From positions 624,220 to 688,219 of the forward strand of contig OZ240251.1 of the NCBI GenBank assembly GCA_965198285.1: DNA of 64,000 bases, written 5' to 3'. This document shows positions 10,002 through 53,896 of this stretch, in pieces. Each line of letters opens with the position of its first letter. The first letter of the stretch is position 1. A program made the translations under genes and the position numbers. The DNA comes from Chloroflexota bacterium. GTDB lineage: Bacteria; Chloroflexota; UBA11872. A model generated the notes under the pieces. The model searched no databases. It was not told where the DNA came from and was given only the letters and a program-made list of their open reading frames with translations.

Positions 10002-10469
10002 ATGTCTGAGACAGCGACGTTGAAGGTGGGCGACGAGGCTCCGGACTTCGAGCTTCCGTCGAGACCTAGGGGCGAGGAGCCGTTCAAGCTGAGCGACCAT
10101 CGCGGGTCGACGGTGGTGATCAACTTCGTGCCGGCGGCGTTCTCGCCGACGTGCAGCAACCAGCTCCCCATCATCGAGGAGAAGCTGGCCGGACTCGCCG
10201 ACACGGTGACGGTCGCGATCTCCACGGACAACGGCTGGTCGCTAAAGGCCTGGGCCGAGCAGACCGGCGTGAGCTATCCCGTGCTCAGCGACTTCAACCC
10301 GCTCGGCGCGACAGCCAGCGCGTATGGCGTTTTTCTCGAGGAGACGAACATCGCCAACCGCGTGGTCATCGTGGTCGACGCCGATGGCAAGGTCGCCCAC
10401 ATCGAGACCGCTCCAGACGTGCCGGAACTGCCCGACTACGACCCCGTCATGGCGTGCCTGTCGGGCTGA
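10002..10469 (+). CDS. peroxiredoxin (AhpC/TSA, Bcp-like)
   Basis: MSETATLKVGDEAPDFELP...VVINFVPAAFSPTCSNQL..., with an ordinary peroxidatic Cys in the FxPxxFSPxC context. Confidence 0.85.
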   Translation: MSETATLKVGDEAPDFELPSRPRGEEPFKLSDHRGSTVVINFVPAAFSPTCSNQLPIIEEKLAGLADTVTVAISTDNGWSLKAWAEQTGVSYPVLSDFNPLGATASAYGVFLEETNIANRVVIVVDADGKVAHIETAPDVPELPDYDPVMACLSG

Positions 10470-14659: not shown

Positions 14660-15004
14660 ATGGCGACCAATTCCGAGCCCACCGTTGTGGCCTACCTCAA
14701 GCCCGTCTGCGGCTGGAGCGCCGGCGTCCGCGCCGTGCTCGACAAGTACAGCCTGGCCTACGAGGACAAGGACATCATCAACGACGCCAGCAGCTACTAC
14801 GAGATGGTTGCCAAGAGCGGCCAGCCGCTCTCTCCCTGTGTCGTGGTAGATGGCCGCATGCTGGCTGACGTCAGCGGCGAGGAAGTCGAAGCCTGGCTGG
14901 CCTCCAAGGGCTACATCCAGCAAAACAACCTCCCCACCCCCGTCCCCATCGACCAGGCCTGCGCCGACGAAGTCCACGCCGCCAGCGTCGTCTTCGAGGA
15001 GTAG
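14660..15004 (+). CDS. glutaredoxin-like protein (CGWS motif)
   Basis: 114 aa; VVAYLKPVCGWSAGVRAVLDKYSLAYEDKDI...CVVVDGRML has a Grx-like thioredoxin fold. It is divergent from the candidate selenoprotein gene. Confidence 0.65.
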   Translation: MATNSEPTVVAYLKPVCGWSAGVRAVLDKYSLAYEDKDIINDASSYYEMVAKSGQPLSPCVVVDGRMLADVSGEEVEAWLASKGYIQQNNLPTPVPIDQACADEVHAASVVFEE

Positions 15005-15202
15005 CAAGGCCAAGAATAGGTTTCTTCGGCGACGCCGCGGTCGTCGAGGTAAGCGCTCCTGATCCGAAGAGCTGATAGCGTGCAGGGCCAACGAGTGCGT
15101 GCGTGCCGCGTACCTCTGGGGTATATTACTCTGGAAGTAGGTGCTTCCTCGGCGAGCTTGCCGTAGAGAGGGCACGACTTGGCGCGCGTTCCGATAACTG
15201 TA

Positions 15203-15526
15203 ATGGGATTTCACTGTGAGCGCTGTAGCCACGAGTGGATTCCTCGAAGCCCCGATTCGAATCCACGGGTCTGCCCCAGTTGCAAGAGCCCCTATTGGGA
15301 TACGCCGAGAAAGTCGGGTTCGGCAACGACGTATGGCGAATTCAGAAGGCGAATAAAGAGAGTACTGGAGCGCAACACAGATGGACTGTCTTGGACGGAA
15401 GTACGTACGGCGTCGAGACTACCCCAGATCTTACCAAATAACGCTTGGGTGCGGAGGCTTGGAGGCGATATCGGGCTCGAAAGGACGCGGGAGCGAGGGT
15501 CCATGATCTGGCGGCTCAAGGCCTAG
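15203..15526 (+). CDS. hypothetical zinc-ribbon protein (low-GC island)
   Basis: MGFHCERCSHEW...CPSCKSPYW (CxxC...CxxC), then a basic, possibly DNA-binding tail. Local GC is ~52% against ~67% nearby. Confidence 0.4.
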   Translation: MGFHCERCSHEWIPRSPDSNPRVCPSCKSPYWDTPRKSGSATTYGEFRRRIKRVLERNTDGLSWTEVRTASRLPQILPNNAWVRRLGGDIGLERTRERGSMIWRLKA

Positions 15527-15543
15527 CCTCGAGTGTTGAGCCA

Positions 15544-16002
15544 GTGATTGAAACGAAAGAACTAAACCCGGCCTTTTATACCGTAGGATATGAGGGTCGT
15601 TCCATCCAGGAATTGATCGATGCTCTGGAGCAGAATGCCATTAGCACAGTAATAGATATTCGCTTTTCACCTGTTAGTAGATTTCGGCCAGAGTTCAGTA
15701 AGCGAAACCTCGCTTCGCTCCTGCGATCTAGCGGTATCGACTACGTTCACTATCGCGATCTCGGCGTACCACGGGACATTCGAGATCAGGCCTTCCATCT
15801 GGGCAAGCGCGAATTCATCTGGGAGTGGTATGAGACGAATGTTGTTCGGAGACACGCGGTTCGCAATCTCCATTGGTTTTTCAACTGTGCAGACCACCCC
15901 GTAGCGCTTCTCTGCATGGAAGCCGACTCTCGAACTTGCCACCGGCACAGGTTGGCTGGGGCGCTTGAGCGCGTGTCGGGGCTGAAGTTCGTGGACATCT
16001 GA
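15544..16002 (+). CDS. DUF488 family protein
   Basis: VIETKELNPAFYTVGYEGRSIQELIDALEQNAISTVIDIRFSPVSRFRPEFSKRNLASLLRSSGIDYVHYRDLG...ALLCMEADSRTCHRHRL; the conserved C-terminal C-x-E-x5-CHR motif of DUF488 is present. A GTG start is assumed. Confidence 0.6.
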   Translation: MIETKELNPAFYTVGYEGRSIQELIDALEQNAISTVIDIRFSPVSRFRPEFSKRNLASLLRSSGIDYVHYRDLGVPRDIRDQAFHLGKREFIWEWYETNVVRRHAVRNLHWFFNCADHPVALLCMEADSRTCHRHRLAGALERVSGLKFVDI

Positions 16003-16019
16003 CGTCCGAGGGCTCAGAA

Positions 16020-16814
16020 ATGCTTGAATGGGAGACTCAGAGGATTCTCATAACGGTACGCACCTATCCGGTCCCGGCATGGCACGGCGGAGAAATCTCG
16101 TGCACCGCAGGCATCTCGGGGGCGGGGAAATGGATCCGGCTTCATCCTGTTCCCTACAGGCTCATTGACAAGGATCAGAGATTCAAGAAATACCAGTGGA
16201 TTGAAGTATCTCTGAAGAAGTCTGAAGACCCTCGTCCTGAAAGCTTCACTCCCAATCTAGATGACTTGCGAGTTGTCTCTGACGTGCTGGGGACCGGTAA
16301 CTCATGGTCTGATCGACGCGCAGTGGTGACGCCACACAGAGATGTTTCAATGTGCAACCTTCAGCGCATAAGCAGCCGTCTTGAGGGTCCAACCCTGGGA
16401 TTTGTACGCGCACGCCAAATACGCCGGCTTGAGATTGAGGCAGCAGATCCAAACTGGCGCGAAGACCAGCTCGCCAGGCTCAGTCAGCGAAGCATGTTCG
16501 TTAAGTCAGCGACAGAAATGCTGGAGAAGATTCCGTTTAAGTTTAGCTATCACTATTTTTGTGACGATTCGGACTGCAGTGGTCACGCGATGGGGTGCAA
16601 TGACTGGGAGATGTTACAGGCATACCGTCGGTGGTCGGCCGAATATGGTGAGAAATGGGAGTCTGCGTTCCGAAACAGGTTTGAGTATGAAATGTCGGAG
16701 ATAGGGGACACGCACTTCTTTGTCGGAACTCACAGTCAGTATCCCAAAACGTGGATGATTGTGGGTATTTGGTATCCGCCGAAAACTGCGTATATGGACC
16801 AACTGTTAGGCTAG
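16020..16814 (+). CDS. hypothetical protein with a Cys-rich segment (low-GC island)
   Basis: 264 aa with no recognisable family; ...FKFSYHYFCDDSDCSGHAMGCNDWE.... The ATG at 16020 has a plausible spacing from the preceding gene. Confidence 0.5.
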   Translation: MLEWETQRILITVRTYPVPAWHGGEISCTAGISGAGKWIRLHPVPYRLIDKDQRFKKYQWIEVSLKKSEDPRPESFTPNLDDLRVVSDVLGTGNSWSDRRAVVTPHRDVSMCNLQRISSRLEGPTLGFVRARQIRRLEIEAADPNWREDQLARLSQRSMFVKSATEMLEKIPFKFSYHYFCDDSDCSGHAMGCNDWEMLQAYRRWSAEYGEKWESAFRNRFEYEMSEIGDTHFFVGTHSQYPKTWMIVGIWYPPKTAYMDQLLG

Positions 16815-16869
16815 ATGAAAGTGCTAGAAAAAGGCGACAGTGTGTGTTTACTGTAGTTATGAGTTCAGT

Positions 16870-19392
16870 TTACGTCCGAAGCTCCGCCCCCAGCCTGTGC
16901 TGCAGCGCCTTTACCACCCGCGTATGCGCCCGGTCCGCCTGCTTGTCCGTCAGCGTCCGGTCCGGCGCGGCGTAGCTGAGCGCATAGGCCAGGCTGCGTT
17001 TGCCGGCGGGGATTTGCTCGCCGCGGTACTCGTCGAAGAGTCGAGCGGACTTGAGCAGCGGGCGGCCCGCGCGCTGGATCGCTTCGTACACCTCGGCCTG
17101 CGTCACCTCGGCGTCCACGACGATCGCCAGGTCGCGCAGCGCGGATGGATATTCCGACCAGGCGCTGAAGGCCGGCGGCCCGGCCGAGGCTGCGCGCACG
17201 GCGGGCATGTCCACCAGCAGTGCCCAGGCCCGTTCGTCCAGGTCGAAGGCAGCGGCGACCTCGGAATCCACCTCGCCGTAGGCGGCCACAACGCGACCTC
17301 GGTAAGTCACGGCGGCCGCGGCGCCGGGGGCGAAGGTGGGGTGCTGCAGGTCGTCGTGGTTGACCTCGGCGGCGGGCACGCCTGAGCGCGTCAGCAGTTC
17401 ATCGAGCACGCCGCGCACGAACGGTAGTTCCACGGACCGGGTTTCGTCCCAGCGGTCGGCGCTGATCCGTTCGCCGACTACGGCCGTAAGGAAGTTCGGT
17501 TCTTCCGGCAGGTCGCCGTCGCGCGCCAGGAACGAGGGCTGGTAGTCGAACAGCAGCAGGTCGCGGTCGGCGTGCCGGCGGTTAGCGCGCAGGGTTTCCA
17601 GCATGGTGCCCAGCCCGGTCAGCCGCAGGGCGTTCTCGTCCATCGACAGCGGGTTGCGCAGCCGCAGCGGCTCGCGGTCCAGCGGCAGTAGCCGGTCGGC
17701 CAGGGCCCGTCCGGCGTCGTTCATGCCCGACTCGCGCACTACGGCCCATGCGTCGGCATCGCCCAATGGCGCCTCCAGAGAGGCGTCCAGCAGGTCCGGC
17801 GGCACCAGCCGCGCCATGCGCGCCTCGCTGGTCAGGGCGTAGGTCACGCACTCGGAAAAGCCCAGGCCCGCCATCACGTCGCGCGCCTCGTCGTCGCGTT
17901 CGTCGATCTCGCCCGGCGCCAGGTCCATCACCTGGCCGGTGGGCAGGGTGTCGGGGATGCGCTCGTAGCCGACCAGGCGCGCGACTTCCTCAATCACATC
18001 CGCCGGCGCGGTCACGTCGCGGCGCCAGAACGGCGGTGTGACGCACAGATCGTCGCCGTCCTCGTCGACAGCGAACTCCAGCGCATCCAGCGCCTGCCGG
18101 ACCTCGGCGCGGTCGTAGGCCACGCCCATCAAACGCTCGATGCGGTCGAACTCAAGCAACACCGGCGCTGGATCTGAGGGGGCCGGGTAGGCGTCGGCGG
18201 AGAGGAACTCGCCCTGGCCGGCGCCGATCTCCTCGATGAGTTGCACGCAGCGACGCAGGGCCAGCACGGTCAGTTCCGGCGGCAGGCCCTTCTCGAAGCG
18301 GCGCGAGGCTTCGCTGCGTAGGGTCAGGCGGTGCGCCGTGCGGCGGATGCTGACCGGATCGAAGGTGGCCGACTCCAGCAGGACCGTTGACGTCGTGTCG
18401 TTGACCTCGGTAGCCAGGCCGCCCATCACGCCCGCCAGGGCCACCGGGCCCTCGGCGTCCACGATGCAGAGCGTTTCAGGCGTCAGCTCCCGGTCCTGCC
18501 CGTCCAGAGTCACCAGGCGTTCGCCGGGCCGGGCCGTGCGAACCCCGATGAACCCGCCGCGCACCTGTTCCCAGTCGAAGGCGTGCAGCGGCTGGCCCAG
18601 TTCCAGCATCACGTAGTTCGTCGCGTCCACGATCGTGCTGATCGGGCGGACACCCGCCTGTTCCAGGCGGTCCCGCATCCAGGCCGGAGATTCGCCCACG
18701 CGCACGTCGCGAACCAGCGCGGCCGAGTAGCGGGCGCAGAGCGCGGGGTCCTCGATCTGGAGTTCTACCGGCGGGCTCGACCCGTCCTCACTCGGTCGAG
18801 CGTCCGGGATGGGCGAACGGACCTGGGTTCCGTAAAGCGCCGCCGCCTCGCGCGCGATACCCAAAACGGAAAGCGCGTCCGGGCGGTTGGCCTTGAGTTC
18901 GAACTCCAGCACCTCGCCGCCCAGCGCCTCCGCCAGCGGACGGCCCAGCGGCGCGTCGGGGTCCAGGATCAGGATGCCTTCGTGGTCGTCGCTGATGCCC
19001 AACTCTTTGGAGGAGCACAACATGCCGCGCGAGACCACGCCCCGGATCCGTGTGGGCTTCAGTTCCTTAAGCACCGGCTCGTCGGCGTAGGGGTCCCAGA
19101 GACGGGCGCCGGTGGGGGCGAAGGCAATTCGGTCGCCCACCTTGAAGTTCCAGGCGCCGCAGACCACCTGGACTTCCTCGCTTCCCGTGTTCACGGTCGG
19201 CAGGTTCAGGCGGTCGGCGTTGGGATGGGGATCGATGCGCACGACCTCGCCCACCACCACGCGGTCCCAGTGCTCGCCGGCGCGGTGGATGGCCCCAACC
19301 TCGAATCCCGCGTTGGTCAGGCGTTGCGCCACGTCGTCAACTGACGCGTCGATCCCGGCCAGTTCGCGTAACCATGCGATGGGAACCCGCAT
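16870..19392 (-). CDS. pheT: phenylalanine--tRNA ligase beta subunit
   Basis: 840 aa; MRVPIAWLRELAGIDASVDDVAQRLTNAGFEVGAI...VVVGEVVRIDPHPNADRLNL (tRNA-binding domain)...B3/4 and B5 regions. Confidence 0.95.
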   Translation of the reverse strand: MRVPIAWLRELAGIDASVDDVAQRLTNAGFEVGAIHRAGEHWDRVVVGEVVRIDPHPNADRLNLPTVNTGSEEVQVVCGAWNFKVGDRIAFAPTGARLWDPYADEPVLKELKPTRIRGVVSRGMLCSSKELGISDDHEGILILDPDAPLGRPLAEALGGEVLEFELKANRPDALSVLGIAREAAALYGTQVRSPIPDARPSEDGSSPPVELQIEDPALCARYSAALVRDVRVGESPAWMRDRLEQAGVRPISTIVDATNYVMLELGQPLHAFDWEQVRGGFIGVRTARPGERLVTLDGQDRELTPETLCIVDAEGPVALAGVMGGLATEVNDTTSTVLLESATFDPVSIRRTAHRLTLRSEASRRFEKGLPPELTVLALRRCVQLIEEIGAGQGEFLSADAYPAPSDPAPVLLEFDRIERLMGVAYDRAEVRQALDALEFAVDEDGDDLCVTPPFWRRDVTAPADVIEEVARLVGYERIPDTLPTGQVMDLAPGEIDERDDEARDVMAGLGFSECVTYALTSEARMARLVPPDLLDASLEAPLGDADAWAVVRESGMNDAGRALADRLLPLDREPLRLRNPLSMDENALRLTGLGTMLETLRANRRHADRDLLLFDYQPSFLARDGDLPEEPNFLTAVVGERISADRWDETRSVELPFVRGVLDELLTRSGVPAAEVNHDDLQHPTFAPGAAAAVTYRGRVVAAYGEVDSEVAAAFDLDERAWALLVDMPAVRAASAGPPAFSAWSEYPSALRDLAIVVDAEVTQAEVYEAIQRAGRPLLKSARLFDEYRGEQIPAGKRSLAYALSYAAPDRTLTDKQADRAHTRVVKALQHRLGAELRT

Positions 19393-33293: not shown

Positions 33294-33412
33294 CCCTCTC
33301 ATCTTGCAGCACGCGCTGCCGGAATTGGCACCCTCTCGAGCGTTCGCCCGAAGGTTGCCCGGCTTCGTTGGGCCGACTCCCTCCACCAATCGTGATGAGA
33401 GGTATGTCACGT
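33294..33412 (-). promoter_or_regulatory. SAM-I (S-box) riboswitch
   Basis: Minus strand: CUCUCAUCACGAUUGGUGGAGGGAGUCGGCCCAACGAAGCCGGGCAACC...GGUGCCAAUUCCGGCAGCG...GCUGCAAGAUGAGAGG. This matches the SAM-I consensus helix by helix (P1 CUCUCAUC/GAUGAGAG, and GGUGCCAAUUCC) and lies ~200 nt upstream of the ThrC-like gene. Confidence 0.8.
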
Positions 33413-37294: not shown

Positions 37295-40200
37295 ATGATG
37301 ATGACTGGCGCCGATAGACGACGATTTCCCATCATCATTGTCGCTCTGGCCGGCTTGGCGCTTGCCGTTGGGCTGTTCGCAACCCATGTCCCGCAGGCCC
37401 ACGCCCAGGGCGCCACCATAACCTCCCTGCTGTCCCGGCTGGACGTGGGAATTTCTGAGTCCGTTAATAACGGCTACCACACTCAGGCGGCAGGATACCG
37501 CCCGCCCCCTGCGACTAATCCAATTGGAACCCTGAGTCCCGCGGGATTCAACTACCCGGCGGGATTCGGCCCCTGGTACACGGTTGAGAAGCTTCTTCTG
37601 AGTCAGGAGGGACAAGCAAACGCTATCGCCCCGGGCATCCTTAGTTTTCACATACGCGGCACTGTGACTTCCGTTGCGAGTTCCGGCACGGAACGGGCGC
37701 GCGTTTTGCCAAAGGGTGCCGGCATCGAGCTTTACCTTGAGGGAGATGACTGGTCCAGAACCTATTCCCTGGACGACGCTACTACTAGAAGAGTTGGGAA
37801 CTGTCTCGACGAAGACGGAGATGATAGGGATTGCGAAGTTGGAGAGACTACCACGGAGGAATACGAGTGGGATGATGATGACAACCGACCTCCGTTGCTT
37901 GCCGACGGCGACAAGATCATCGTCCGCCTGACGTACTCGGCGCCGCGTGCGGCCAAGCCGGGGACGCCGACGGTTACGGCGCCGACGGGGAAGTCCGGGG
38001 CGCTGGTGGTGGAGTGGACCGCGCCCACGAACGACGATCCGAAGGTGCGCGGCTACGAGGTGCACGTGTCCCCTGCCGCCGGCGAGACGGAGGCCACCGG
38101 GGTGACCAGGACCACGGGCGGCTCCAACACGCGCCTGCCGGTGCTGCTGCTTGAGCCGGACACCGCCTACGACGTGAGAGTGCGGGCGCGCACATACTTT
38201 GCCTCGGGTCCCTGGTCGGAAACGGTGCGTGCCACGACCAATCCGCTGCAGGGAACGAACAATCCCTCAGTCACGCTGGACCTCGACGGCGTCACGAAAG
38301 TCAAGGTGGGAGACAAGTTGTACAAGCGGCTCAAGGTGACGGGGATGAACAACCTGCACGCCGGCGCGTTCCCGGACAGGTTCGAGGGCCATCGCCAGAT
38401 CCACAACGTGGAGTTCCGGGTGCTGGACAGGATCCATGACTCGTACGTGTACGAAGACCTCACGCACGGCGATGGAGAAGGCGCCTTCTACGCCGGCGCC
38501 CTGACCATCGGTGAGGACGGGGAGGTGTACCACAACTTCGGGTACGAGGTGATTGCCGAGGGCCGGGCCGAGGGCGAAAAAGGAGATGGAGCGCCGGAAT
38601 ACGGGCCGTTGTACCTCTGGCTGGAGAGCACGACGGGCGTTGTCCAGATCGGCAGCACAGCCAATTCGCGCGCAACGGCGCTGTGCGTGGAGATCGCCGA
38701 CGACTCGAACATGGTCCCGACCGACCGTACCTGCTCCACGGGCGGGTCGGCGGGCCACGCGGTGGACCGGCTGACGGGCCGCTTCGTGAACGTCCCCCAG
38801 TCCCACGACGGTGAGAGCGAGTTCACCGTGCGGCTGGCCTTCGTCGAGGACGTGGGCATAAGCCCCGAATCGCTGCGCGAGGACGCGCTCGCGGCGACCG
38901 GGGGCGCGGTCACCCGGGTGCAGCGGGTGGACGACCGCAGCGACCTGTTCGAGATCACGGTGGAGCCGGACTCCGACGAGGACGTGACGATCACGCTGTC
39001 GTCGAGTGGAGACTGCGGCGAATCCGGATCGATCTGCACCCAGGAGGAGGACCCCAGGAAGCTTTACAACAGCCCGACTGCGACGGTGGCGGGTCCCATC
39101 CTGACGGCGAGCTTCCAGGGCCTGCCGTCGCAGCATGACGGGGAGACGGCGTTCAGCTTCAGGATCGCGTTCAGCGACGAGATAGCGACCGAAGAGGAGG
39201 AGTTCCGGGACCACAGCGTGGAGGTGTGGGGCGGCGAGGTGACACGGGCCGAGCCGGTGGGCCAGCGGCGCGACCTCTGGGAAGTCGAGGTCGAGCCGGC
39301 CTCGGAGGACTCGGTGATGGTCTCGCTCAAGCTGACGCAGTCCTGCGCTGCCACGGGCGCGGTGTGCACGGCGGGCGGGCGGCTCCTGTCGGTGGTCCCC
39401 GCAACGATGGTGCCCGGCCCGGCGACCTGGCCGGTGCGGGTCACCGGCGAGGCGCAGGTGGGGAAGACCCTGACCGCGGACTCGTCGAACCTCTCCGAGC
39501 GGTACGGCGTGCAGGTCACCTCCATGACCTACCGGTGGCTGGCCGATGGCGCCCGCATACCGGGGGCCAACGCCCGAACCTACCAGCCGGACGATGACAA
39601 GCAGGGCAAGAGAATCAGCGTGATGGCGACCTACACCGACGACCGGGGCAACGAGGAGACGGTGATCAGCGCGCCCACCGAGCCGCTGGCGGCCAGGGAC
39701 CGCATCAGGCGGGCCACGGGCCTGCCGCTGATCAGCGGCAGGGCGCTGGTGGGGCATACGCTGACAGCGGACACGTCGCTCATCATCGACCCTAACGGCC
39801 TGGAGAATGCCGTCTTCTACTACTTCTGGGAGGCGGACGACGACAGCATCCCGGATGCGACCGACTCTACGTACACGCCGGTGGAAGCCGACGTGGGCAA
39901 GGAAATCACTTTCATAGTGGCTTGGGTTGACGACGCTGGCCACGGACAGAACATGACCAGCCAGCCGACGATGCCGGTGATGACGGCCGAGGCCGCGGCG
40001 GCGGTGGAGTTCCGCAAGAGTCTCAGGGTCGCGGCGAATGCCGACGGGTCGGTGACCCTGTACTGGAACGCGCCCGATGAGGATGTGACCGGTTACCGGA
40101 TATTGCGCCACCGCCATTCGCTGGGCGAGCTCGATCCGCTGGTGTACGTGGCGGACACGGGCAGCACGGCGACCGCCTACACCGACACCGGTATGGTTGC

Positions 40201-43200
40201 GGGCGTGCCGCACAACTACCGCGTACAGGCCATCAGGGACGGGGTGCTGGGCGAACGGACCATACAGATCAAAATCTTCCCGGTGAGGAAGGCAACCAAC
40301 AGCCCGGCCACCGGCGCGCCCGCCATCAGCGGAACGGCGCAGGTGGGAGAGACGCTGACGGCGGACATCTCCGGCATCGCCGACGAGGATGGGCTGGAGA
40401 ACGTGACCAAGAATTATCTGTGGGCGGCAATCGGCAGCAGCGGCAAAATCGGCGCCAAGTACGCCTACCAGTGGCTGGCCGACGGCGCGGAGAGCGGTAC
40501 GGGCCAACACCATGCAGGCTATGACAATACGACCTACACCCTGGCGGAAGACGACGAGGGCAAGGCCATCAGCGTGCGGGTGACTTTCGTTGACGACGGG
40601 GGCCACCAGGAGACGCTCACCAGCGCGGCAACGGACCCGGTGGCGGCGCTGCCCCAGCCCAACAGCCCGGCCACCGGCGCGCCCGCCATCACTGGAACGG
40701 CCCAGGTGGGCGAGACGCTGACGGTGGACACGTCGGGCATCACCGACGAGGACGGGCTGGACGATTCCAGCTTCACCGTCCAATGGATAACGGACGATTC
40801 AGTCATGGTCGCCAACGCCGCCAGGTCCTACACCCCGACCGACGGCGACCGGGGCAAGTCCGTCAAGGTGCGGGTGAGCTTCACCGACGACGCGGGCAAC
40901 CCGGAGACCCGCACCAGCGCACAGACGGCGACGGTGGAGGCTCGGGCCAACTCCCCTGCGACCGGCCTGCCAACCATCAGCGGGACCGCCCAGGTGGGTG
41001 AGACGCTGACGGCGGACACCACCGGCATCGCCGACGCGGACGGGCTCACCAACGTCGGCTACACCTACCAATGGCTTGCCGACGACGCTGAAATCGCCGG
41101 TGCTACCGGCTTGACCTACACCCTCGTAGACGCCGACCAGGGCAAGTCCGTCAAGGTCAGAGTGACCTTCACCGACGGTGGCGGCAACGAGGAGACCCTG
41201 ACCAGCGCGCCGACCGCCTCGGTGGAGGCAAACCCCAACAACCCGGCCACCGGAGCGCCGACCATCATCGGCACCGCCCAGGTGGGCGAGACGCTGACGG
41301 CGGACACGTCGGGGATTGCGGATGGGGACGGGCTTTCCAACGTGGTCTATAGCTACCAGTGGGTATCCAGTGACGGAACAACCGATACGGATATAGAGAA
41401 GGCGACCGCCTCGACCTACACCCTCGTAGACGCCGACCAGGGCAAGGCCATAAAGGTCAGAGTGACCTTCACCGACGGCGGCGGCAGCGAGGAGACCCTG
41501 ACCAGCGCGCCCACGGGTCCCGTGTTTAGCGACGGCCCGCCGGGAGTGCCCCGCAACCTCACCGCCACCGCCGGAAACAAGGAGGTAACCCTGTCCTGGG
41601 ACCCGCCCGCCGACAACGGCAACGCGCCCGCAACGGGATACCGCATCGAGTGGAGGATCGACGGCAAGGACTACGACAAGAACATTTGGGGCACAGCGCG
41701 AAGTACCACCTATACGACGAACGACCAGGCCAATCTGGCCAATGGAGTCAAGTACTTCTTCCGGGTAAGGGCCGGGAACGGCAGCGGCAACCGCCAGGGA
41801 CCATACGGCCCGGCCTCCGGGGAGGTGAGCGCCACTCCCACGTCCGGCTCGGCGGTGGACCTGGGCACGCCGGTGCTGTCGAACACGGAAACCCTGCATC
41901 ACGGCATGGTGAGGCTGGACTGGGAGGACATAGAGGACGCCGGTTGGTACGTGGTCCAGTACTACGACGTCAGAGGTGGGGAGTGGTTGGACCTGCCCGC
42001 CGAGGGAGTGGACGTCGCGTTCCACGGATCAAGCGCGGTGGTGAGCAACCTGCATGGGCTCTCGTGGCTGCGGGTTGGTGCGATGAGCTGTGCCGGAGCA
42101 TCGGAGTGGTCGCAAATCGAGCAGCTGTTCGGGACCAACGCATCGGACTGGGACGGCGTGCCTGTACCGGAGGTGGAAGCAGGCGACGAGATCGAACCAT
42201 GCCCCGTGGACCTGGGCACGCCGGTGCTGTCGAACACGGAAACCCTGCACCACGGCATGGTGCAGCTGGACTGGCAGGCCATAGAGGACGCCGGTTGGTA
42301 CGTGGTCCAGTACTACGACGTCAGAGGTGGGGAGTGGTTGGACCTGCCCGCCGAGGGAGTGGACATCGCGCTCCATGGATCAAGCGCGGTGGTGAGCAAC
42401 CTGCATGGGCTCTCGTGGCTGCGGGTTGGTGCGGCCAGCTGCGACGGGGCATCGGAGTGGTCGCAGATCGAGGAGTTGTACGGGACCAATGCATCGGACT
42501 GGGAGGGCGTGCCCGTGCCCGAGGTGGCGGAGGGCGACGAGATCGAGCCATGCTCAGAAGACGCGGACACATCTGACAACAGCCCGGCCACGGGCGCGCC
42601 CACCATCAGCGGGACTGCGCGGGTAGGTGAGGTGCTGGAAGTGGACACGTCGAGCATCGCCGACGCGGACGGGTTCACCAACGCTGCCTTCACTTACCAG
42701 TGGCTTGCCGACGACTCCGAAATCGCAGGCGCTACCGGCTCCACATACACCCTGACCGATAGCGAAGAAAGCAAGGCCATCAAGGTGGAGGTGTCCTTCA
42801 CCGACGATGCCGATAACGAGGAGACGCTTACCAGCGCAGCGACAGCGGTGGTGGCGGCCAAGCCGAACTCTCCTGCCACGGGAGCGCCCACCATCAGCGG
42901 CACGGTCCAAGTCGGAGAGACCCTGACGGCGAACACGTCGGGAGTCATCGACGCAGACGGGCTTAGCAACATCCAGTACGAGTACCAGTGGCTGGCCGAC
43001 GACGCCGACATATCGGGAGCGACCAACGCCACCTACACCCTGGCAGCAGCCGACGAGGGCAAGGTCATCAAGGTTCGGGTGAGTTTCACCGACGGCGCGG
43101 GCAACGAGGAGACGCTGACCAGCGCGGCCACGGACGCGGTGGCGGCAGAGCCCCAGACCAATTCTCCCGCCACCGGAGCGCCAACCATCACCGGCACGGT

Positions 43201-43756
43201 CCAGGTGGGGGAGACGCTGACCGCGAACACGTCGGGCATCGCCGACGCCGACGGGCTTAGCAACGTCCAGTACGAGTACCAGTGGCTGGCCAGCGACTCG
43301 GACATATCGGGAGCGACCAACGCCACCTACACCCTGGCAGCAGCCGACGAGGGCAAGGTCATCAAGGTTCGGGTGAGCTTCACCGACGATGCGGGCAATG
43401 AGGAGACGCTGACCAGCGCGGCAACGGGCGCGGTGGCAGCGGCGGAGCCATCGGAGCCTCCCGCCAAGCCCAGGGGCCTCGAAGCCACGGCGACCCACGG
43501 CCAGGTGATCCTTACCTGGGACGACCCCCAGGACGACAGCATCACCGGCTACGTGATCCTGCGCCGCGTGCGGGTGAACGATACCGGGGGCGACTTCGAT
43601 GTATTGGTCTCGGACACGGGCAGCGCCGCCGCCACCTACACCGACGACATGGTGGCGGCCGGCATTACCTACACCTACCGCATCAAGGCCATCAACGGGG
43701 CCGGAACGAGCGACCGTTCCCGCTGGTACCACATCGACACCCCCGCCGCGCCGTAA
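37295..43756 (+). CDS. giant secreted repeat protein (2153 aa): signal peptide, FN3 domains, two ~110-aa HDGE(T/S)xF repeats, ~9 Ig-like ~95-aa repeats, two ~110-aa DLGTPVLSNTETLHHG repeats, C-terminal FN3
   Basis: Good RBS (GGGAGGAA) before ATG 37295. Signal RRRFPIIIVALAGLALAVGLFATHVPQAHA. Repeats of NSPATGAPTISGTAQVGETLTADTSGIADADGL...YQWLADD...GKxIKVRVTFTDxxGNEETLTSA recur about every 285 nt from ~39400 to 43440. The protein ends ...RSRWYHIDTPAAP. Confidence 0.85.
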   Translation: MMMTGADRRRFPIIIVALAGLALAVGLFATHVPQAHAQGATITSLLSRLDVGISESVNNGYHTQAAGYRPPPATNPIGTLSPAGFNYPAGFGPWYTVEKLLLSQEGQANAIAPGILSFHIRGTVTSVASSGTERARVLPKGAGIELYLEGDDWSRTYSLDDATTRRVGNCLDEDGDDRDCEVGETTTEEYEWDDDDNRPPLLADGDKIIVRLTYSAPRAAKPGTPTVTAPTGKSGALVVEWTAPTNDDPKVRGYEVHVSPAAGETEATGVTRTTGGSNTRLPVLLLEPDTAYDVRVRARTYFASGPWSETVRATTNPLQGTNNPSVTLDLDGVTKVKVGDKLYKRLKVTGMNNLHAGAFPDRFEGHRQIHNVEFRVLDRIHDSYVYEDLTHGDGEGAFYAGALTIGEDGEVYHNFGYEVIAEGRAEGEKGDGAPEYGPLYLWLESTTGVVQIGSTANSRATALCVEIADDSNMVPTDRTCSTGGSAGHAVDRLTGRFVNVPQSHDGESEFTVRLAFVEDVGISPESLREDALAATGGAVTRVQRVDDRSDLFEITVEPDSDEDVTITLSSSGDCGESGSICTQEEDPRKLYNSPTATVAGPILTASFQGLPSQHDGETAFSFRIAFSDEIATEEEEFRDHSVEVWGGEVTRAEPVGQRRDLWEVEVEPASEDSVMVSLKLTQSCAATGAVCTAGGRLLSVVPATMVPGPATWPVRVTGEAQVGKTLTADSSNLSERYGVQVTSMTYRWLADGARIPGANARTYQPDDDKQGKRISVMATYTDDRGNEETVISAPTEPLAARDRIRRATGLPLISGRALVGHTLTADTSLIIDPNGLENAVFYYFWEADDDSIPDATDSTYTPVEADVGKEITFIVAWVDDAGHGQNMTSQPTMPVMTAEAAAAVEFRKSLRVAANADGSVTLYWNAPDEDVTGYRILRHRHSLGELDPLVYVADTGSTATAYTDTGMVAGVPHNYRVQAIRDGVLGERTIQIKIFPVRKATNSPATGAPAISGTAQVGETLTADISGIADEDGLENVTKNYLWAAIGSSGKIGAKYAYQWLADGAESGTGQHHAGYDNTTYTLAEDDEGKAISVRVTFVDDGGHQETLTSAATDPVAALPQPNSPATGAPAITGTAQVGETLTVDTSGITDEDGLDDSSFTVQWITDDSVMVANAARSYTPTDGDRGKSVKVRVSFTDDAGNPETRTSAQTATVEARANSPATGLPTISGTAQVGETLTADTTGIADADGLTNVGYTYQWLADDAEIAGATGLTYTLVDADQGKSVKVRVTFTDGGGNEETLTSAPTASVEANPNNPATGAPTIIGTAQVGETLTADTSGIADGDGLSNVVYSYQWVSSDGTTDTDIEKATASTYTLVDADQGKAIKVRVTFTDGGGSEETLTSAPTGPVFSDGPPGVPRNLTATAGNKEVTLSWDPPADNGNAPATGYRIEWRIDGKDYDKNIWGTARSTTYTTNDQANLANGVKYFFRVRAGNGSGNRQGPYGPASGEVSATPTSGSAVDLGTPVLSNTETLHHGMVRLDWEDIEDAGWYVVQYYDVRGGEWLDLPAEGVDVAFHGSSAVVSNLHGLSWLRVGAMSCAGASEWSQIEQLFGTNASDWDGVPVPEVEAGDEIEPCPVDLGTPVLSNTETLHHGMVQLDWQAIEDAGWYVVQYYDVRGGEWLDLPAEGVDIALHGSSAVVSNLHGLSWLRVGAASCDGASEWSQIEELYGTNASDWEGVPVPEVAEGDEIEPCSEDADTSDNSPATGAPTISGTARVGEVLEVDTSSIADADGFTNAAFTYQWLADDSEIAGATGSTYTLTDSEESKAIKVEVSFTDDADNEETLTSAATAVVAAKPNSPATGAPTISGTVQVGETLTANTSGVIDADGLSNIQYEYQWLADDADISGATNATYTLAAADEGKVIKVRVSFTDGAGNEETLTSAATDAVAAEPQTNSPATGAPTITGTVQVGETLTANTSGIADADGLSNVQYEYQWLASDSDISGATNATYTLAAADEGKVIKVRVSFTDDAGNEETLTSAATGAVAAAEPSEPPAKPRGLEATATHGQVILTWDDPQDDSITGYVILRRVRVNDTGGDFDVLVSDTGSAAATYTDDMVAAGITYTYRIKAINGAGTSDRSRWYHIDTPAAP

Positions 43757-47692: not shown

Positions 47693-48433
47693 CGCCCGGC
47701 TGACCGTCACGGCCGATGCGGCCGGCGCCCGCGACCTGGCGGTCGGCGGCCTCTCGCAGGGCTCCGGGATGGGCTGACTGCGGGCGCTTGGATCCGTTCG
47801 AGGAGGACTCCGGTCTGTCGTGCTCGGACCAGAACCGCCGTCTGGACACGCATCCCGAAACCGTGAGGCGCTGGAGGGACTAGGGCGTGCGGCCCAGGGC
47901 GCGTCACCGCATGATGGCGCATTTGAAGCTGCCTGACTCGCTGGGCCTCGGGCGCGGGCGCCGGCAGCCCCTGACGCTGCCAATGGCGTCGTCGGCTCGA
48001 CGCCGGCTCAGGCCAGCGATCCCAACGGCCTGACCAGCTAGCCGCCGACGGTCGATGCGCCGGTCCATCCGCTGGTGCTACGCAGGTCGCACCGCTGCCG
48101 CTTCCCGCTGCGTCGGGAAAGTGCCTGGGACGACCCGCCGGCCCGTGCTACGATAGGCGACTGCCTGAAAAGGCATCCGCGCATTTCGGCGGCGCTTGAT
48201 TCATCAGCCGCCCCCGGCAGCGCACCGGCGGAATCCGCTGGGCGCGGGCGCGACGGCACCTTAACAGGGGAAGAGTGAGTGTGAGTGCTCGCGTCATTCC
48301 ATAGTGTCTGGCGCGACGGTAGATCCACGTGATTGAGGACGACTCGGTGGCTCTGGGGTCCGGCCCAGCCGGTGCCCCGGGGATATTGCGATCTATTCAC
48401 GCCGTTATCGGCGTGTTGTGAGATTGATTTGGC

Positions 48434-49948
<1,515 letters not shown>

Positions 49949-50128: not shown

Positions 50129-50455
50129 GGAGCGTCGGGCCGGTCAGGCGGCCGCTCCGGTTCACGCCGGAGAGGAAAGTCCGCACTTCACAGAGCGCGG
50201 TAGCGGGTAACACCCGTCGCCCAAGTCGGTTCACGCCGGCAAGGGCCGGAACAGGGGCACAGTGACGATGCCCACGCCCCCAGCCGGGGGCGCGGGAGTG
50301 AAACGGCTAACCTCTACCTGAAGCAAGGCCAAGTCGGGACGCCACCAGGCTGCTCGCCCAGTCCCAGGTAGGCTGCACGAGGCCGGCGGCAACGCCGGTC
50401 CCAGATAGATGGCCGCCCACGACAGAATGCGGCTTATCGACCGGTCCGACGCTCT
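50129..50455 (+). ncRNA. rnpB: RNase P RNA (bacterial type A)
   Basis: GGAGAGGAAAGTCCG (P4/CR-I)...GGTAACACC...AGCAAGGCCAA...GGTAGGCTGC...CCAGATAGATGGCCGCCCACGACAGAATGCGGCTTATCG (CR-IV/V); P1 pairing GAGCGTCGGGCCGGT / ACCGGTCCGACGCTC. Strong similarity to E. coli M1 RNA motifs. Confidence 0.85.
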
Positions 50456-50581: not shown

Positions 50582-50656
<75 letters not shown>

Positions 50657-50870
50657 CTATTCCCTACGCGAGGCGACCTCTTGGGTACCGCTCTTTTACA
50701 GCGCCCGCAGGCTGGCTTCGAGGCGCTGCTAGGTATTTCCGATTGACCAGAGGAGCCCCGTAGCTCACCGTCTCGCAACTCCATCGCTCGAACGATAGGT
50801 GACCGACGAAAGACGACAAGGCGATAGATTCCGATATAGTTGGATGATTTCGTACTTCCACGGGGACAGG

Positions 50871-51125
50871 GTGGCGCAGGTCAAGAAGAGCATCACTGTG
50901 ACGGATCGCCAGGAACAGTGGATCAGGGCGCAGATCGCGAGCGGCGAATACGGGAGTGACAGCGAGTATGTCCGTGACTTAATCCGTCGCGATCAGGACC
51001 AGAACGCGGCCTTCCGGGACTTGACGGCGGCAATTCAGAAAGGTCTGGCGAGCGGTATGAGCGACAAGCCGGTGAAGGAGGTTTGGGCGGAAGCGGAGCA
51101 ACGCTACCGAGCTAGGCATGGCTGA
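50871..51125 (+). CDS. parD: ParD-family antitoxin (RHH)
   Basis: VAQVKKSITVTDRQEQWIRAQIASGEYGSDSEYVRDLIRRDQDQNAAF...; GTG start; overlaps parE. Confidence 0.7.
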   Translation: MAQVKKSITVTDRQEQWIRAQIASGEYGSDSEYVRDLIRRDQDQNAAFRDLTAAIQKGLASGMSDKPVKEVWAEAEQRYRARHG

Positions 51126-51417
51126 CTTCCGTCTGTCCGCCCGCGCTGATGCCGATCTCGCCGGGATCGCCAACTACACGATCGAGACATTCGGCATCGA
51201 ACCGGCTCGCCAGTATCGGGACGCTCTGGAAGCTTGCTTTCATAATCTTGTGTGGAACCCGCATTTGGGTCGCAGCGTGAAACGGCTTGCGCCTAGCCTG
51301 CGGCGCTTCCAACTCCAGTCGTATGCGGTCTGTGCGACGCGGACCATGAGGGTATTCTGCTCGTCCGCATATGTTTCTTATGACACGTCGCCTTACAGAC
51401 ACAAAGCAACGTGCTAG
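51118..51417 (+). CDS. parE: ParE/RelE-family toxin (C-terminus possibly frameshifted)
   Basis: MADFRLSARADADLAGIANYTIETFGIEPARQYRDALEACFHNLVWNPHLGRSVKRLAPSLRRFQLQSY.... The canonical C-terminal ...DDGxEILRVLH-like motif (CDADHEGILLVRI) is found in the +2 frame, ending at 51383. Confidence 0.5.
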   Translation: MADFRLSARADADLAGIANYTIETFGIEPARQYRDALEACFHNLVWNPHLGRSVKRLAPSLRRFQLQSYAVCATRTMRVFCSSAYVSYDTSPYRHKATC

Positions 51418-51848
51418 TAGAGTCGGAGACGGCTATGATAACCATTCGTCCAACTACCCGCGACCAGCCTTCCAATTCTCTTCCCCTCGGTTACAATAGG
51501 AGTGTGCTTCCTTAGAAAGCGTCCTATCGCAAGCATCAATTCGAATCCATAATGATGTGCCTTTCTCGCCACCGCCGGCAGGTTCTACTTCCGGCCGGAT
51601 CGCTTCATGGTGATGTTGACGGTAGGTGGGCCTCCTGCTTGACGACGGCCACCTACGCGATAGTGACCGTCGATGCTGTCTGCATCGCGAGTCGGTGGCC
51701 GATATTCAGCCTACCGGAATCTACTTCCAGAACCGCGAGGATCACCGTGCCGGTGATCGCGGGCGCGTGCTAACTCATGCTACGCCATGCTTGCCGCGCA
51801 TTGACGCCGGGGGCGAGTATCTCTGCCGAAAGCGCTGAGCCTCGCTGC

Positions 51849-52430
51849 ATGCGCATCCGACGCTACGGACCGACCGCAATCTTGATAGTGAGTCTCACGG
51901 GCTCGTTGCTCCCAGCACTCGGACCGCGCGCCTTGAATCTCGCGGCGTGGATCGACTATATCGACCCTGACATTGATGGGTCACTCGGAAATACCTACAG
52001 CAGCGCCCTCTGGCTAGGTGTTGCTGTAATGGCTGCCGTGCTTTGCCGGCACGCCGACTATCGCCCAGGCTGGTCGAGCATCATATTGCTCGCGACAGCT
52101 CTGGCGATCGGTGAAATACATGACTTCAAGGATGAGCTGGAGGCGGCCGTTACAGAAAAGCTGTTACCTGTGAATTGGACTGTTATTCTCGCCCCAGTCG
52201 CGCTCCCGTTCCTGATCTTGGCTACCCGAGCCTTGTGGACCGCGACCCGAACGTCGACGCTTCGCGCACTACTTATTGCTTCCAGTGTCCTGGTTCTTAT
52301 AGCACTCGTGCTTGACAGCGCCAAGCCTCATGGCGTGTGGAAAAACATAGCTGAAGAATTATCGGAATTGATGGCCGCGGCGATACTGATTGCGATCCTC
52401 GCATCTGTGCTCGGCTGGGTGTCACCATAG
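51849..52430 (+). CDS. hypothetical integral membrane protein
   Basis: Several hydrophobic helices (ILIVSLTGSLLPALG..., LWLGVAVMAAVL..., LIASSVLVLIALVL...). Lower-GC island adjacent to the tRNA. Confidence 0.45.
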   Translation: MRIRRYGPTAILIVSLTGSLLPALGPRALNLAAWIDYIDPDIDGSLGNTYSSALWLGVAVMAAVLCRHADYRPGWSSIILLATALAIGEIHDFKDELEAAVTEKLLPVNWTVILAPVALPFLILATRALWTATRTSTLRALLIASSVLVLIALVLDSAKPHGVWKNIAEELSELMAAAILIAILASVLGWVSP

Positions 52431-52463
52431 CCAACGTTCGCTATCCGACGTCCACTCTGCGCG

Positions 52464-53078
52464 ATGGCCGGATTCGCGGTACTTGCTGTAGGAGCCCTGG
52501 CAATCACTGAGTACGAAATCCGTGATACTGGCGTGTACTGGGACTCGCCGGAACGTGAGCACGGGCCTCTCACCATGGTTTCCCAAACCCTTCAGGTCAA
52601 CCACGCCTATCTTTCTCGTATTGAGGTGTGGGCCACAGCTGTCGGTGGTGAGGGGGCAATCTTTATGCGCCTAACGCCCGTCGGGTCGGCGCGGCCAATC
52701 CGTGAGAGTCGCGCGGCCGTGCACCATCCTCGCTGGAGCGAGCAGACCGTTGACCTTAAATTCGTCCCCGTTCCTGATAGCCAAGGCCAGACGTACGATC
52801 TCACAATTGGGGCGTTGGTCCCAACGCCGCATGTGTTTCTCGGACTGTCAACCGACAATCCGAATTCGCTAAGCGCCGTTCGAATCAATGGGGAGCCTGA
52901 TCGCTGGGCAAATGATCTTGCGCTGCGGACGTATTGGAGGGGGCGAGCACCAGAGGCTTTAGCTGCAATGATTCAGCAGGATCCGCGAACCTTAACGATG
53001 CTTGGGGTAATGGTGATCATTGCGACGCTAAGTGTCGGTATCGTTACGCTGTGGGTGCTGTCCGCGCATCGAGGGTAG
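52464..53078 (+). CDS. hypothetical membrane-anchored protein
   Basis: N-terminal helix (FAVLAVGALAI) and C-terminal helix (LGVMVIIATLSVGIVTLWVL). Confidence 0.45.
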   Translation: MAGFAVLAVGALAITEYEIRDTGVYWDSPEREHGPLTMVSQTLQVNHAYLSRIEVWATAVGGEGAIFMRLTPVGSARPIRESRAAVHHPRWSEQTVDLKFVPVPDSQGQTYDLTIGALVPTPHVFLGLSTDNPNSLSAVRINGEPDRWANDLALRTYWRGRAPEALAAMIQQDPRTLTMLGVMVIIATLSVGIVTLWVLSAHRG

Positions 53079-53169
53079 AGTATGACAATCGAACGTCAGA
53101 ATATGAATATTTGCGTTACTTTCAGTGCAAGGACGGCCACGGCATACGCAAGCCTGTGCGTCTGCGTAC

Positions 53170-53197
53170 TTGATATCGTTGCCGTAGTGTGTATAAT
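53170..53197 (+). promoter_or_regulatory. sigma70-like promoter (TTGATA-16-TATAAT) driving a leaderless hicA
   Basis: TTGATA 53170..53175 and TATAAT 53192..53197; the GTG start at 53205 is 7 nt past the -10 box. Confidence 0.5.
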
Positions 53198-53204
53198 ACA
53201 TACA

Positions 53205-53330
53205 GTGGATAGGCGGGAAGTTCTGCGCCTGCTCCGTCGCGACGGCTGGCTGCTCAGGAACGCAAGGGGTAGCCATCACCAGTTCACGCATCCTGACAAG
53301 CCTGGGCGCGTCACGGTCAAGCACCCGTAA
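53205..53330 (+). CDS. hicA: HicA-family toxin, truncated by an in-frame TAA
   Basis: VDRREVLRLLRRDGWLLRNARGSHHQFTHPDKPGRVTVKHP-[TAA]-RDISIGTLRSIFRQAGWNWKER-[TAA]. The 21 codons after the stop continue in the same frame and match the usual HicA C-terminal tail; the second TAA overlaps the hicB ATG. Confidence 0.55.
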   Translation: MDRREVLRLLRRDGWLLRNARGSHHQFTHPDKPGRVTVKHP

Positions 53331-53398
53331 CGGGACATATCGATCGGCACGCTACGGAGCATCTTCCGTCAGGCTGGTTGGAATTGGAAGGAACGCTA

Positions 53399-53806
53399 AT
53401 GCAGTTTCCAATCGTAATTCACAAAGACGAGACAAGCGACTACGGTGTCACGGTTCCCGATTTACCCGGGTGCTTCTCAGCAGGTGACTCGTTTGAGGAC
53501 GCCGTGAGCTCGGCCCACGAAGCTGTTGCCTGCCATATCGAAGGCTTGCTTATGGATGGCGAGTCTATCCCGGAACGTAAGCCGATCGAGCTACATCAAA
53601 CCAATCAGGACTACGAGAACGGCGTCTGGGCGCTGATTGATGTTGATGTTTCTAAACTCTCGAGCAAGACGGTGCGGGTCAATATCACAATGCCTTCACG
53701 CGTGTTGTCCATTATTGATGAAGCAGCGGCTCGGGAGAGAGAGTCCCGCTCGGGGTTACTCACGCGTGCTGCCCTTCAATTCGTGGATAGGCAGACGACC
53801 GCATAG
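53399..53806 (+). CDS. hicB: HicB-family antitoxin with C-terminal RHH domain
   Basis: MQFPIVIHKDETSDYGVTVPDLPGCFSAGDSFEDAVSSAHEAVACHIEGL...VNITMPSRVLSIIDEAAARERESRSGLLTRAALQFV. Confidence 0.75.
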   Translation: MQFPIVIHKDETSDYGVTVPDLPGCFSAGDSFEDAVSSAHEAVACHIEGLLMDGESIPERKPIELHQTNQDYENGVWALIDVDVSKLSSKTVRVNITMPSRVLSIIDEAAARERESRSGLLTRAALQFVDRQTTA

Positions 53807-53896
53807 GTAGCTAGGATTTAGTTCCGTCTGAAACTGGACTCTCCAGAACCACCACGTGAAGCAACCAGCGGCTTGCAGTCTGTGGTGTTCGCCCCG

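Follow-up and report, generated by a model that had tools for sequence, protein, structure and literature searches.

Several published findings bear on the locus described here. First, a survey by Payne et al., which relied on 'guilt-by-embedding' to collect genes embedded in BREX, DISARM and type I restriction-modification (RM) loci, put forward 145 untested candidate systems under the name PDC (10.1101/2024.01.29.577857); one of these, PDC-M19, consists of an A and a B gene. Second, deletion of the DUF488 gene yeaO in Escherichia coli resulted in CRISPR spacers taken almost only from the IS4 transposase gene insG, and the authors proposed that YeaO regulates IS4 mobilisation (10.1101/2024.05.24.595836). 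Here we analysed 64,000 nucleotides (nt) from a Chloroflexota bacterium (contig OZ240251.1, positions 624,220 to 688,219), referred to as the window and numbered from its first letter. A low-GC island in it, between a glutaredoxin gene (grx) and pheT, carries three open reading frames (ORFs) on one strand: ORF1 encodes a Zn-ribbon protein, ORF2 a DUF488 protein and ORF3 a dual OB-fold protein (Table 1). Our analysis settles that this island represents a copy of a functional three-gene operon that is self-contained, spreads horizontally and has a nucleic-acid-binding architecture; the role of the operon is weighed more tentatively below.

The adjacent same-strand genes ORF2 and ORF3 match the A and B genes of PDC-M19, and the pair is thus already catalogued as that candidate. 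ORF2 matches the PADLOC profile PDC-M19A (PDLC04505) at E 1.6e-30 and 104.6 bits, over the DUF488 part (143-286) of a 294-position profile, and ORF3, lying 18 nt downstream on the same strand, matches PDC-M19B (PDLC04508) at E 9.6e-59, with residues 6-257 on profile positions 3-264 of 269. However, PDC-M19 has a two-gene definition, whereas ORF1, which is without a PADLOC model, precedes the pair in about 80% of the loci that we compared; and the cassette does not usually adjoin known defence genes. With regard to the second precedent, E. coli YeaO is in the same Pfam family as ORF2, and a YeaO-like clade (DUF488-N3a) partners ORF3 in two loci (L025, L026); yet E. coli YeaO itself is a stand-alone gene from a DUF488 clade other than that of ORF2. 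The searchable text of papers contains no mention of 'PDC-M19' or 'DUF488-N3', and 'DuOB' led to no relevant paper. As far as we checked, the new elements are the third gene, the upstream motif that travels with it, the logic by which DUF488, ASCH and ParB proteins occupy one slot, the fold assignments and the copies bounded by IS1-type ends.

The three genes recur together. A scan for ORF3 across one genome per species found 239 relatives among 185,579 species genomes; 80 of these loci were fetched, and two more from exact look-ups brought the comparison to 82 (the exact ORF3 sequence of the window is not on record). ORF1, ORF2 and ORF3 stand in the same order and with the same spacing in 65 of the 82, and one further locus (L013), missed by the thresholds and outside that count, carries the trio as well. 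The hosts include Chloroflexota, Acidobacteriota, Alpha-, Beta- and Deltaproteobacteria, Nitrospirota and a Candidatus Eisenbacteria genome, and the ORF3 relatives are scattered over phyla in unrelated contexts. Clustering of all neighbouring ORFs revealed no conserved fourth gene. The original prediction, made from the letters of the window, had singled out three tightly spaced same-strand genes that lie in a GC drop between a glutaredoxin-like gene and pheT and belong to uncharacterised families; each part of this description is borne out, since the spacing is as tight as described, the trio co-occurs in several phyla, and none of the three proteins maps to a characterised housekeeping family. 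Horizontal acquisition had been read from base composition. It is now further supported by the patchy distribution, the unrelated flanks, the plasmid and phage relatives, and copies bounded by IS1-type ends with target-site duplications.

These bounded copies are the most direct evidence of mobility. The only recurrent neighbours of the trio are transposases, usually directly upstream of ORF1 and divergent from it: an IS1-family DDE transposase (PF03400) in up to 18 loci and a SWIM+DDE_Tnp_1 (IS4-type) transposase in 10. Apart from transposases, the genes closest to the trio have ordinary housekeeping functions, and few are known defence genes. At four loci (L012, L020, L074 and L079), terminal inverted repeats starting with GGTAGTG enclose the transposase together with the trio, in units of 3.1-3.25 kb. 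The repeats agree at 17/17 positions in L012, 24/24 in L074 and 17/19 in L079, each flanked by an 8-bp target-site duplication (CATTTTAA, CTTGGGTT and CGGCAATC, respectively), and at 27/27 in L020, which has no duplication. Target-site duplications of 8-9 bp are a signature of the IS1 family. In these genomes, a transposon therefore carries the trio as a passenger, and the units are similar to IS1-family transporter insertion sequences. Metagenome contigs yielded no empty target site for the insertion in L074 or that in L079. The IS4-type transposase also forms a block with the trio: between L014 and L028 (5729-8789, 78%), the homology spans exactly the SWIM+DDE_Tnp_1 transposase and the three genes, and the flanks are unrelated. 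For these units, one terminal repeat pair was found, 16/16 in L080 and without a duplication, and their terminal repeats are unproven.

Three further observations concern these units. We considered whether the spacer separating ORF3 from the right IS1 end holds a conserved fourth gene or RNA and rejected this, as the spacer is not conserved. In L012 (7448-7663, minus strand) and L020 (2943-3185, minus strand), it contains a small Lys-rich ORF on the strand opposite to the trio, with a KGGKARAAKLSPKRRKEIAKKAAKSRW-type tail; L074 and L079 lack this ORF. Finally, L016 (8291-9833 and 12171-13188) contains three copies of the SWIM+DDE_Tnp_1 transposase, one of them followed by a partial, inverted ORF1 5' region, and L049 has a similar ORF1 5' fragment at 10127-10210; these fragments suggest truncated or rearranged units of transposase plus trio.

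Unlike those copies, the one in the window has no transposase, inverted repeats or duplication. The island shows no tRNA, integrase or flanking direct or inverted repeat; there is no GGTAGTG repeat of the IS1 type in its vicinity, with spacers of just 175 nt and 55 nt; the genes beside it are grx and pheT instead of an IS1-type DDE transposase; and terminal inverted repeats with an 8-9-bp target-site duplication were not found around it. The best explanation is that the cassette here lost, or never had, a transposase, became fixed between grx and pheT, and is still exchanged by recombination.

The frequent company of transposases raises one alternative for the role of the trio, namely that it serves its carrier element, for example by binding and processing DNA ends or single-stranded intermediates in transposition or conjugative entry, by repressing transposition, or by countering host defence at establishment. 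The position of the trio within IS1-type transposon ends speaks for this, as does the conserved block with DDE_Tnp_1 transposases in about 10 loci, and no other gene recurs beside it. OB folds would suit single-stranded DNA, the genes next to plasmid relatives are primase/toprim, DUF1419 and large helicase genes or KfrA, and the spacers from insG after yeaO deletion (10.1101/2024.05.24.595836) point in the same direction. Yet most loci, the window included, are without a transposase and are nonetheless under strong purifying selection, and the yeaO finding comes from one indirect observation, made on another DUF488 clade. Moreover, the carriers comprise two unrelated transposase families, phages and plasmids, which argues for portable cargo and not for a factor of a single transposition mechanism. 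We consider such an accessory function unlikely.

The history of the cassette in the Chloroflexota lineage is consistent with old residence and continued exchange. The island occupies the same grx/pheT site in two related genomes (L001 and L003), where the flanks have a synonymous divergence (dS) of ~0.4; the insertion in the window is thus not recent. The segment from ORF1 to ORF3 has a GC content of 0.532 against a mean of 0.66 for the window (z = -3.54 in 1636-nt sliding segments) and is the lowest-GC stretch of that length in it: 152 of 62,364 segments are equal or lower, all starting at 15173-15326. GC at third codon positions (GC3) is 0.57-0.61 in the three genes, compared with 0.86-0.90 in grx, pheT, pheS and an Ldh-like gene. 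This contrast gives no clock for a recent arrival, because low GC is general to the cassette: at 71 of 78 loci it has a lower GC than the host, and at none a clearly higher one (means of 0.508 in the cassette and 0.590 in the flanks). Relative to L001, the ratio of nonsynonymous to synonymous divergence (dN/dS) is 0.067 for ORF1 (dS 0.65), 0.106 for ORF2 (dS 0.61) and 0.081 for ORF3 (dS about 2.0), and 0.06-0.16 in the flanks (dS 0.27-0.44); all three genes are under purifying selection as strong as that on the flanks. A sliding comparison of window positions 15212-16875 with L003 gave 97-100% identity for the cassette and about 85-95% for the flanking housekeeping genes. The core of ORF3 (16112-16560), by contrast, is only 58-68% identical to L001, within flanks of 90-94%. 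This mosaic suggests that alleles are still being exchanged at a fixed locus, a behaviour common for conflict genes.

The same data bear on the possibility that the trio represents low-GC housekeeping genes of the host, for DNA or RNA repair or nucleotide metabolism, or decaying remnants of an insertion that no longer has a function. Stable inheritance at one site in related Chloroflexota and the lack of mobility genes in the window would agree with this, and RecA or RuvB adjoins the trio in a few other loci. However, the 185,579 species genomes yielded just 239 relatives, spread over scattered phyla and unrelated contexts; insertion sequence (IS)-bounded copies exist; and the identity of the cassette is decoupled from that of its flanks. 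Intact reading frames with dN/dS of 0.07-0.11 exclude decay. Both versions are largely excluded, and we regard them as very improbable.

The first gene of the operon encodes a putative regulator. Its CxxC...CxxC zinc ribbon was correctly recognised beforehand: C13, C16, C32 and C35 are invariant in 34 sequences, and weak, sub-threshold matches occur to Zn_ribbon_8 in 34/34 family members and to Zn_ribbon_PF0610 in 25/34. What had been described as a basic tail is in fact a conserved C-terminal domain of ~65 amino acids (aa). Residues 48-115 have no Pfam or PDB sequence match; the sequence pattern, together with the JGI name of some homologues ('predicted Zn-ribbon and HTH transcriptional regulator'), suggests a helix-turn-helix (HTH) or winged-helix fold, and ORF1 is a putative DNA-binding regulator of the cassette. 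The family comprises at least 289 proteins of ~114 aa with 55-68% identity and was often missed by the original annotators, as in Bradyrhizobium sp. 83012 (GCA_013178925.1). Its N-terminus, MARVPITVMG, is conserved family-wide, thus fixing the ORF1 start at 15179, where the window has TTG and both L001 and L003 have GTG.

Upstream of ORF1 lies the conserved block of Table 1, identical at 29/29 positions in the window, L001 and L003, where the surrounding intergenic DNA is 61-73% identical. The sole GTATATWAC of the window is found here (15121-15129). Across 62 distant loci, GTATAT/ATATAC occurs upstream of ORF1 at 1.52 per 150 nt versus 0.023 elsewhere in the same loci, and the extended form (A/G)GTATAT(T/A)AC is often present in 3-5 copies. 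That such a motif travels with the cassette fits autoregulation by ORF1, which we infer from sequence, and agrees with the possible regulator of the original prediction. Simple scans for sigma-70 promoters and for terminators returned nothing. As a separate observation, in seven alphaproteobacterial loci (L010, L018, L034, L035, L043, L051 and L057), the palindrome AAATATTGATTAGCTAATCAATATTT replaces the GTATATTAC-type repeats upstream of ORF1; this may be a co-evolved operator variant.

ORF2 belongs to DUF488, as had been recognised: it matches PF04343 at 81 bits (cutoff 22.2; E 1.4e-22), and the C-terminal CHR motif, C132-H133-R134, is invariant in 35 sequences. The full set of invariant residues is D38, R40, H69, R80, C124, E126, D128 and C132-H-R-H-R136. 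In the AlphaFold2 model (pLDDT 90.6), the protein is a four-stranded alpha/beta domain in which the invariant polar residues all lie at the C-terminal strand ends. By two methods, the solved folds nearest to this model are protein tyrosine and dual-specificity phosphatases (PTP/DSP), with a weak resemblance that extends over SsoPTP, laforin/SEX4, DUF442 and the baculovirus and PIR1 RNA 5'-phosphatases. The PTP signature C-X5-R is not conserved: the window protein reads C124-MEADS-R130, but position 130 is T, R, M or V across the family, and the conserved motif is instead C124-x-E-x-D-P-x-x-C132-H-R-H-R. We take 'phosphatase-like' as a lead from the modelled fold, and not as family membership. 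The start of ORF2 is ambiguous between TTG 15445 (185 aa, with an 82-nt overlap with ORF1) and GTG 15544. The latter is more likely, because it lies 18 nt after the ORF1 stop and the family and PADLOC alignments begin there; position 15508, a CTG in the window and a TTG in L003, is a further candidate. A frameshifted ORF1-ORF2 fusion was ruled out, considering that ORF1 has no match to the long PDC-M19A profile and that the overlap arrangement is conserved in other genomes.

For ORF3, the absence of a recognisable family holds for Pfam and NCBIfam and fails elsewhere, since the protein matches PHROG 25907 (2.7e-49) in addition to PDC-M19B. The family numbers 2742 clusters at 50% identity (E <= 1e-3), essentially always stand-alone proteins of ~265 aa. 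The predicted structure (pLDDT 91.3, pTM 0.89) comprises two OB-like barrels; a CCHC knuckle (C181, C186, H189 and C193) and a long helix belong to the second. Its top fold matches are RPA, PriB, Ten1, RecO and HIN; OB barrels are thus shared with the single-stranded DNA binders RPA, PriB, Ten1/Stn1 and RecO and with the tandem-OB HIN domains. Across bacterial, phage and archaeal relatives, Y16, P17, C28, R40, P43, F55, K57, D70, R72, S75, W96, R99, Y177 and C181 are invariant, and E74, D195, W196 and E197 nearly so. Such a set would point to a specific pocket or an active site rather than to generic coating of DNA. The plasmid clade has lost C186, H189 and C193 of the knuckle, which indicates that this zinc site is dispensable. 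Judging by the modelled fold and the conserved Y16, W38, R40, F55, K57 and R72, ORF3 probably binds single-stranded nucleic acid. Membership in Pfam DuOB (PF22557) was considered and is unsupported for the core family, of which 0/54 members match the hidden Markov model at E <= 1; only two relatives, gp43 of a phage and the one from pSOG2, match it at E ~0.002 and 18.7 bits, below the 27-bit cutoff. Searches of PDB sequences with single sequences and profiles of all three proteins gave nothing meaningful; a match to 6c3a at E 0.003 was a local alpha/beta segment.

The gene in front of ORF3 is variable. Besides the DUF488 of the window type, this slot is filled by the short YeaO-like DUF488 in L025 and L026; by a DUF488 fused to another N-terminal domain in L019; by a ParB_N-DUF488 fusion in L015, L061, L067 and L071, the last of which retains ORF1; and by a ParB_N-HTH_ParB-ASCH protein, directly upstream of the ORF3 homologue and in the DUF488 position, in L027, L058, L066 and L082. 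The partner is thus a DUF488 of three types, a ParB_N-DUF488 or a ParB_N-HTH-ASCH protein, and this variety of DUF488, ParB and ASCH neighbours makes ORF3 the constant component. The window has a free-standing DUF488 and neither ParB nor ASCH. The ASCH domain, which is PUA-like, is a predicted reader of modified nucleic acids (PMC4738411), and ParB-fold fusions to DUF488-HTH bind CTP (PMC12704722).

More distant relatives of ORF3 (27-36% identity) are carried by plasmids, a viral contig, Gordonia phages and Sulfolobus conjugative plasmids. On conjugative plasmids (pRL8, the IncP plasmid pYS1 and others), the relative is convergently paired with a DUF488 gene; on the viral contig, it adjoins a DNA methyltransferase; in the Gordonia phages, it directly follows a 316-aa HTH 'immunity repressor' within the lysogeny module; and on the Sulfolobus plasmids, it lies beside an integrase. 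Phage Nymphadora (L083, 4030-5834) gives an observation of its own: the last base of the repressor gene gp44 is the first base of the ORF3 homologue gp43, gp44 combines HTH_31 with an unknown C-terminal domain of ~240 aa, and a HipA-like gene and an integrase adjoin. Two candidate links were rejected here: hhalign gave no hidden DUF488 in Gordonia gp44 or in the pSOG2 neighbour of the Sulfolobus homologue, and gp44 is unrelated to ORF1.

Carriage on IS elements, plasmids and prophages would also suit a three-component addiction module of the toxin-antitoxin (TA) kind, in which DUF488 or ORF3 is toxic, another component neutralises it, and ORF1 autoregulates the operon, with the module as a whole stabilising the carrier element or region. 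The operon is small, tightly coupled and autoregulated in appearance; it is maintained as an isolated islet surrounded by housekeeping genes; modules of this kind typically have low GC and a patchy distribution; and an Unstab_antitox gene adjoins the trio in L002, as the HipA-like gene adjoins the phage homologue. Nevertheless, Pfam, NCBIfam and PADLOC show no likeness to known toxin or antitoxin families, and proteins of 264 and 152 aa with a nucleic-acid-binding architecture and ParB or ASCH variants are atypical of TA pairs. Many TA modules also act in defence, so that the idea partly overlaps with the role that we favour. Taken as a separate explanation, an addiction module seems to us rather improbable.

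We tentatively favour, at an even chance or slightly less, a module borne by mobile elements and directed against foreign or competing nucleic acid, whether as anti-phage or anti-mobile-element defence, as exclusion or in conflict between elements. This reading draws on the PADLOC candidacy, on carriage by IS elements, plasmids and prophage immunity regions, on ParB and ASCH variants typical of DNA surveillance, and on the allele exchange at the locus. The proposed mechanism is as follows: ORF1, with its Zn ribbon and HTH-like domain, would autoregulate the operon by binding the GTATAT(T/A)AC-type repeats that precede its own gene. ORF3 would bind single-stranded or otherwise exposed nucleic acid via its two OB folds. 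The DUF488 protein, a Rossmann-like alpha/beta domain with a predicted Cys/His/Arg-rich pocket at the C-terminal strand ends, may act on, or sense, a phosphate-bearing nucleic-acid or nucleotide ligand, and would fill the slot that is taken in sister systems by ASCH, a presumed reader of modified bases. The module would then be the PADLOC candidate PDC-M19 plus a regulator.

Several points weigh against this proposal. PDC systems derive from embedding, and a transposon-borne cassette would also land in restriction or BREX loci by chance insertion. Defence genes are not enriched among the immediate neighbours in 80 loci. The trio contains no recognisable nuclease and no other domain with an obvious killing or effector function. 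The core clade is rare in viral contigs: that it is phage-borne was considered and rejected, as just one viral contig was recovered. On the regulatory side, the AT-rich composition of promoters contributes to the motif enrichment, and both the DNA-binding fold of ORF1 and its link to the motif are predictions.

A more specific version can be formulated. DUF488 could be a new nucleic-acid-directed enzyme with a phosphatase-like fold, delivered by the dual-OB protein to single-stranded or exposed DNA and policing mobile DNA; we regard this as a long shot. Policing would mean either IS-borne immunity or control of transposition or of excised-element DNA, and, if true, would tie the trio to yeaO and IS4 in E. 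coli. It would also be the first function for DUF488 and for the ORF3 family with its ~2,700 clusters, and would imply that IS1-type elements spread such systems across phyla. In any case, DUF488 is a widespread prokaryotic orphan domain and the ORF3 family has no Pfam entry, and the two are obligate partners, joined by a third gene that resembles a regulator. This means that a compact, clonable three-gene system is now at hand for a catalogued defence candidate. In addition, transposon-borne cargo can confound 'guilt-by-embedding' predictions, and a link between DUF488 and insertion sequences, if real, connects to the unexplained yeaO-IS4 phenotype.

Table 1. Features of the grx-pheT interval in the window
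Feature	Position	Strand	Evidence or remark
Low-GC island, glutaredoxin stop to pheT stop	15005..16869	.	GC profile; same boundaries in syntenic L001 and L003
Conserved block TACCTCTGGGGTATATTACTCTGGAAGTA, putative promoter/operator	15110..15138	+	-10-like TATATT flanked by CTCTGG direct repeats
ORF1, 115-aa Zn-ribbon protein	15179..15526	+	CxxC...CxxC
ORF2, DUF488 protein, 152 aa from GTG 15544	15544..16002	+	PF04343, PDC-M19A
ORF3, 264-aa dual OB-fold protein (PDC-M19B) with CCHC knuckle	16020..16814	+	contains CDDSDCSGHAMGC
Glutaredoxin gene, left flank	14660-15004	+	
pheT, right flank	16870-19392	-	

Other features of the window lie apart from the cassette. RNase P RNA (50136-50452) and a tRNA-Met (50582-50656) come after a 16S rRNA gene (48426-49946); no 23S rRNA gene follows the 16S gene within the 64-kb window, and the genome may have unlinked rRNA genes. 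A second low-GC island (~50700-54400, GC 0.55-0.59) adjoins the tRNA-Met and contains two ORFs without a Pfam family (51777-52430 and 52464-53078) and a HicB-like antitoxin (53378-53806). Another low-GC patch encodes a SeqA_N + Mrr_N protein (60751-61458), followed by two unusual tRNAs: one has the anticodon ACT (61686-61760), and the other (61765-61840) is listed by ARAGORN as undetermined, with the four-base anticodon 'tgca', and scores only 40 bits with the Rfam tRNA model. A SAM riboswitch (RF00162, 77 bits) is found at 33296-33401 on the minus strand, and a region of about 4 kb (~39500-43500) shows a strong positive AT skew, up to +0.33, at normal GC.

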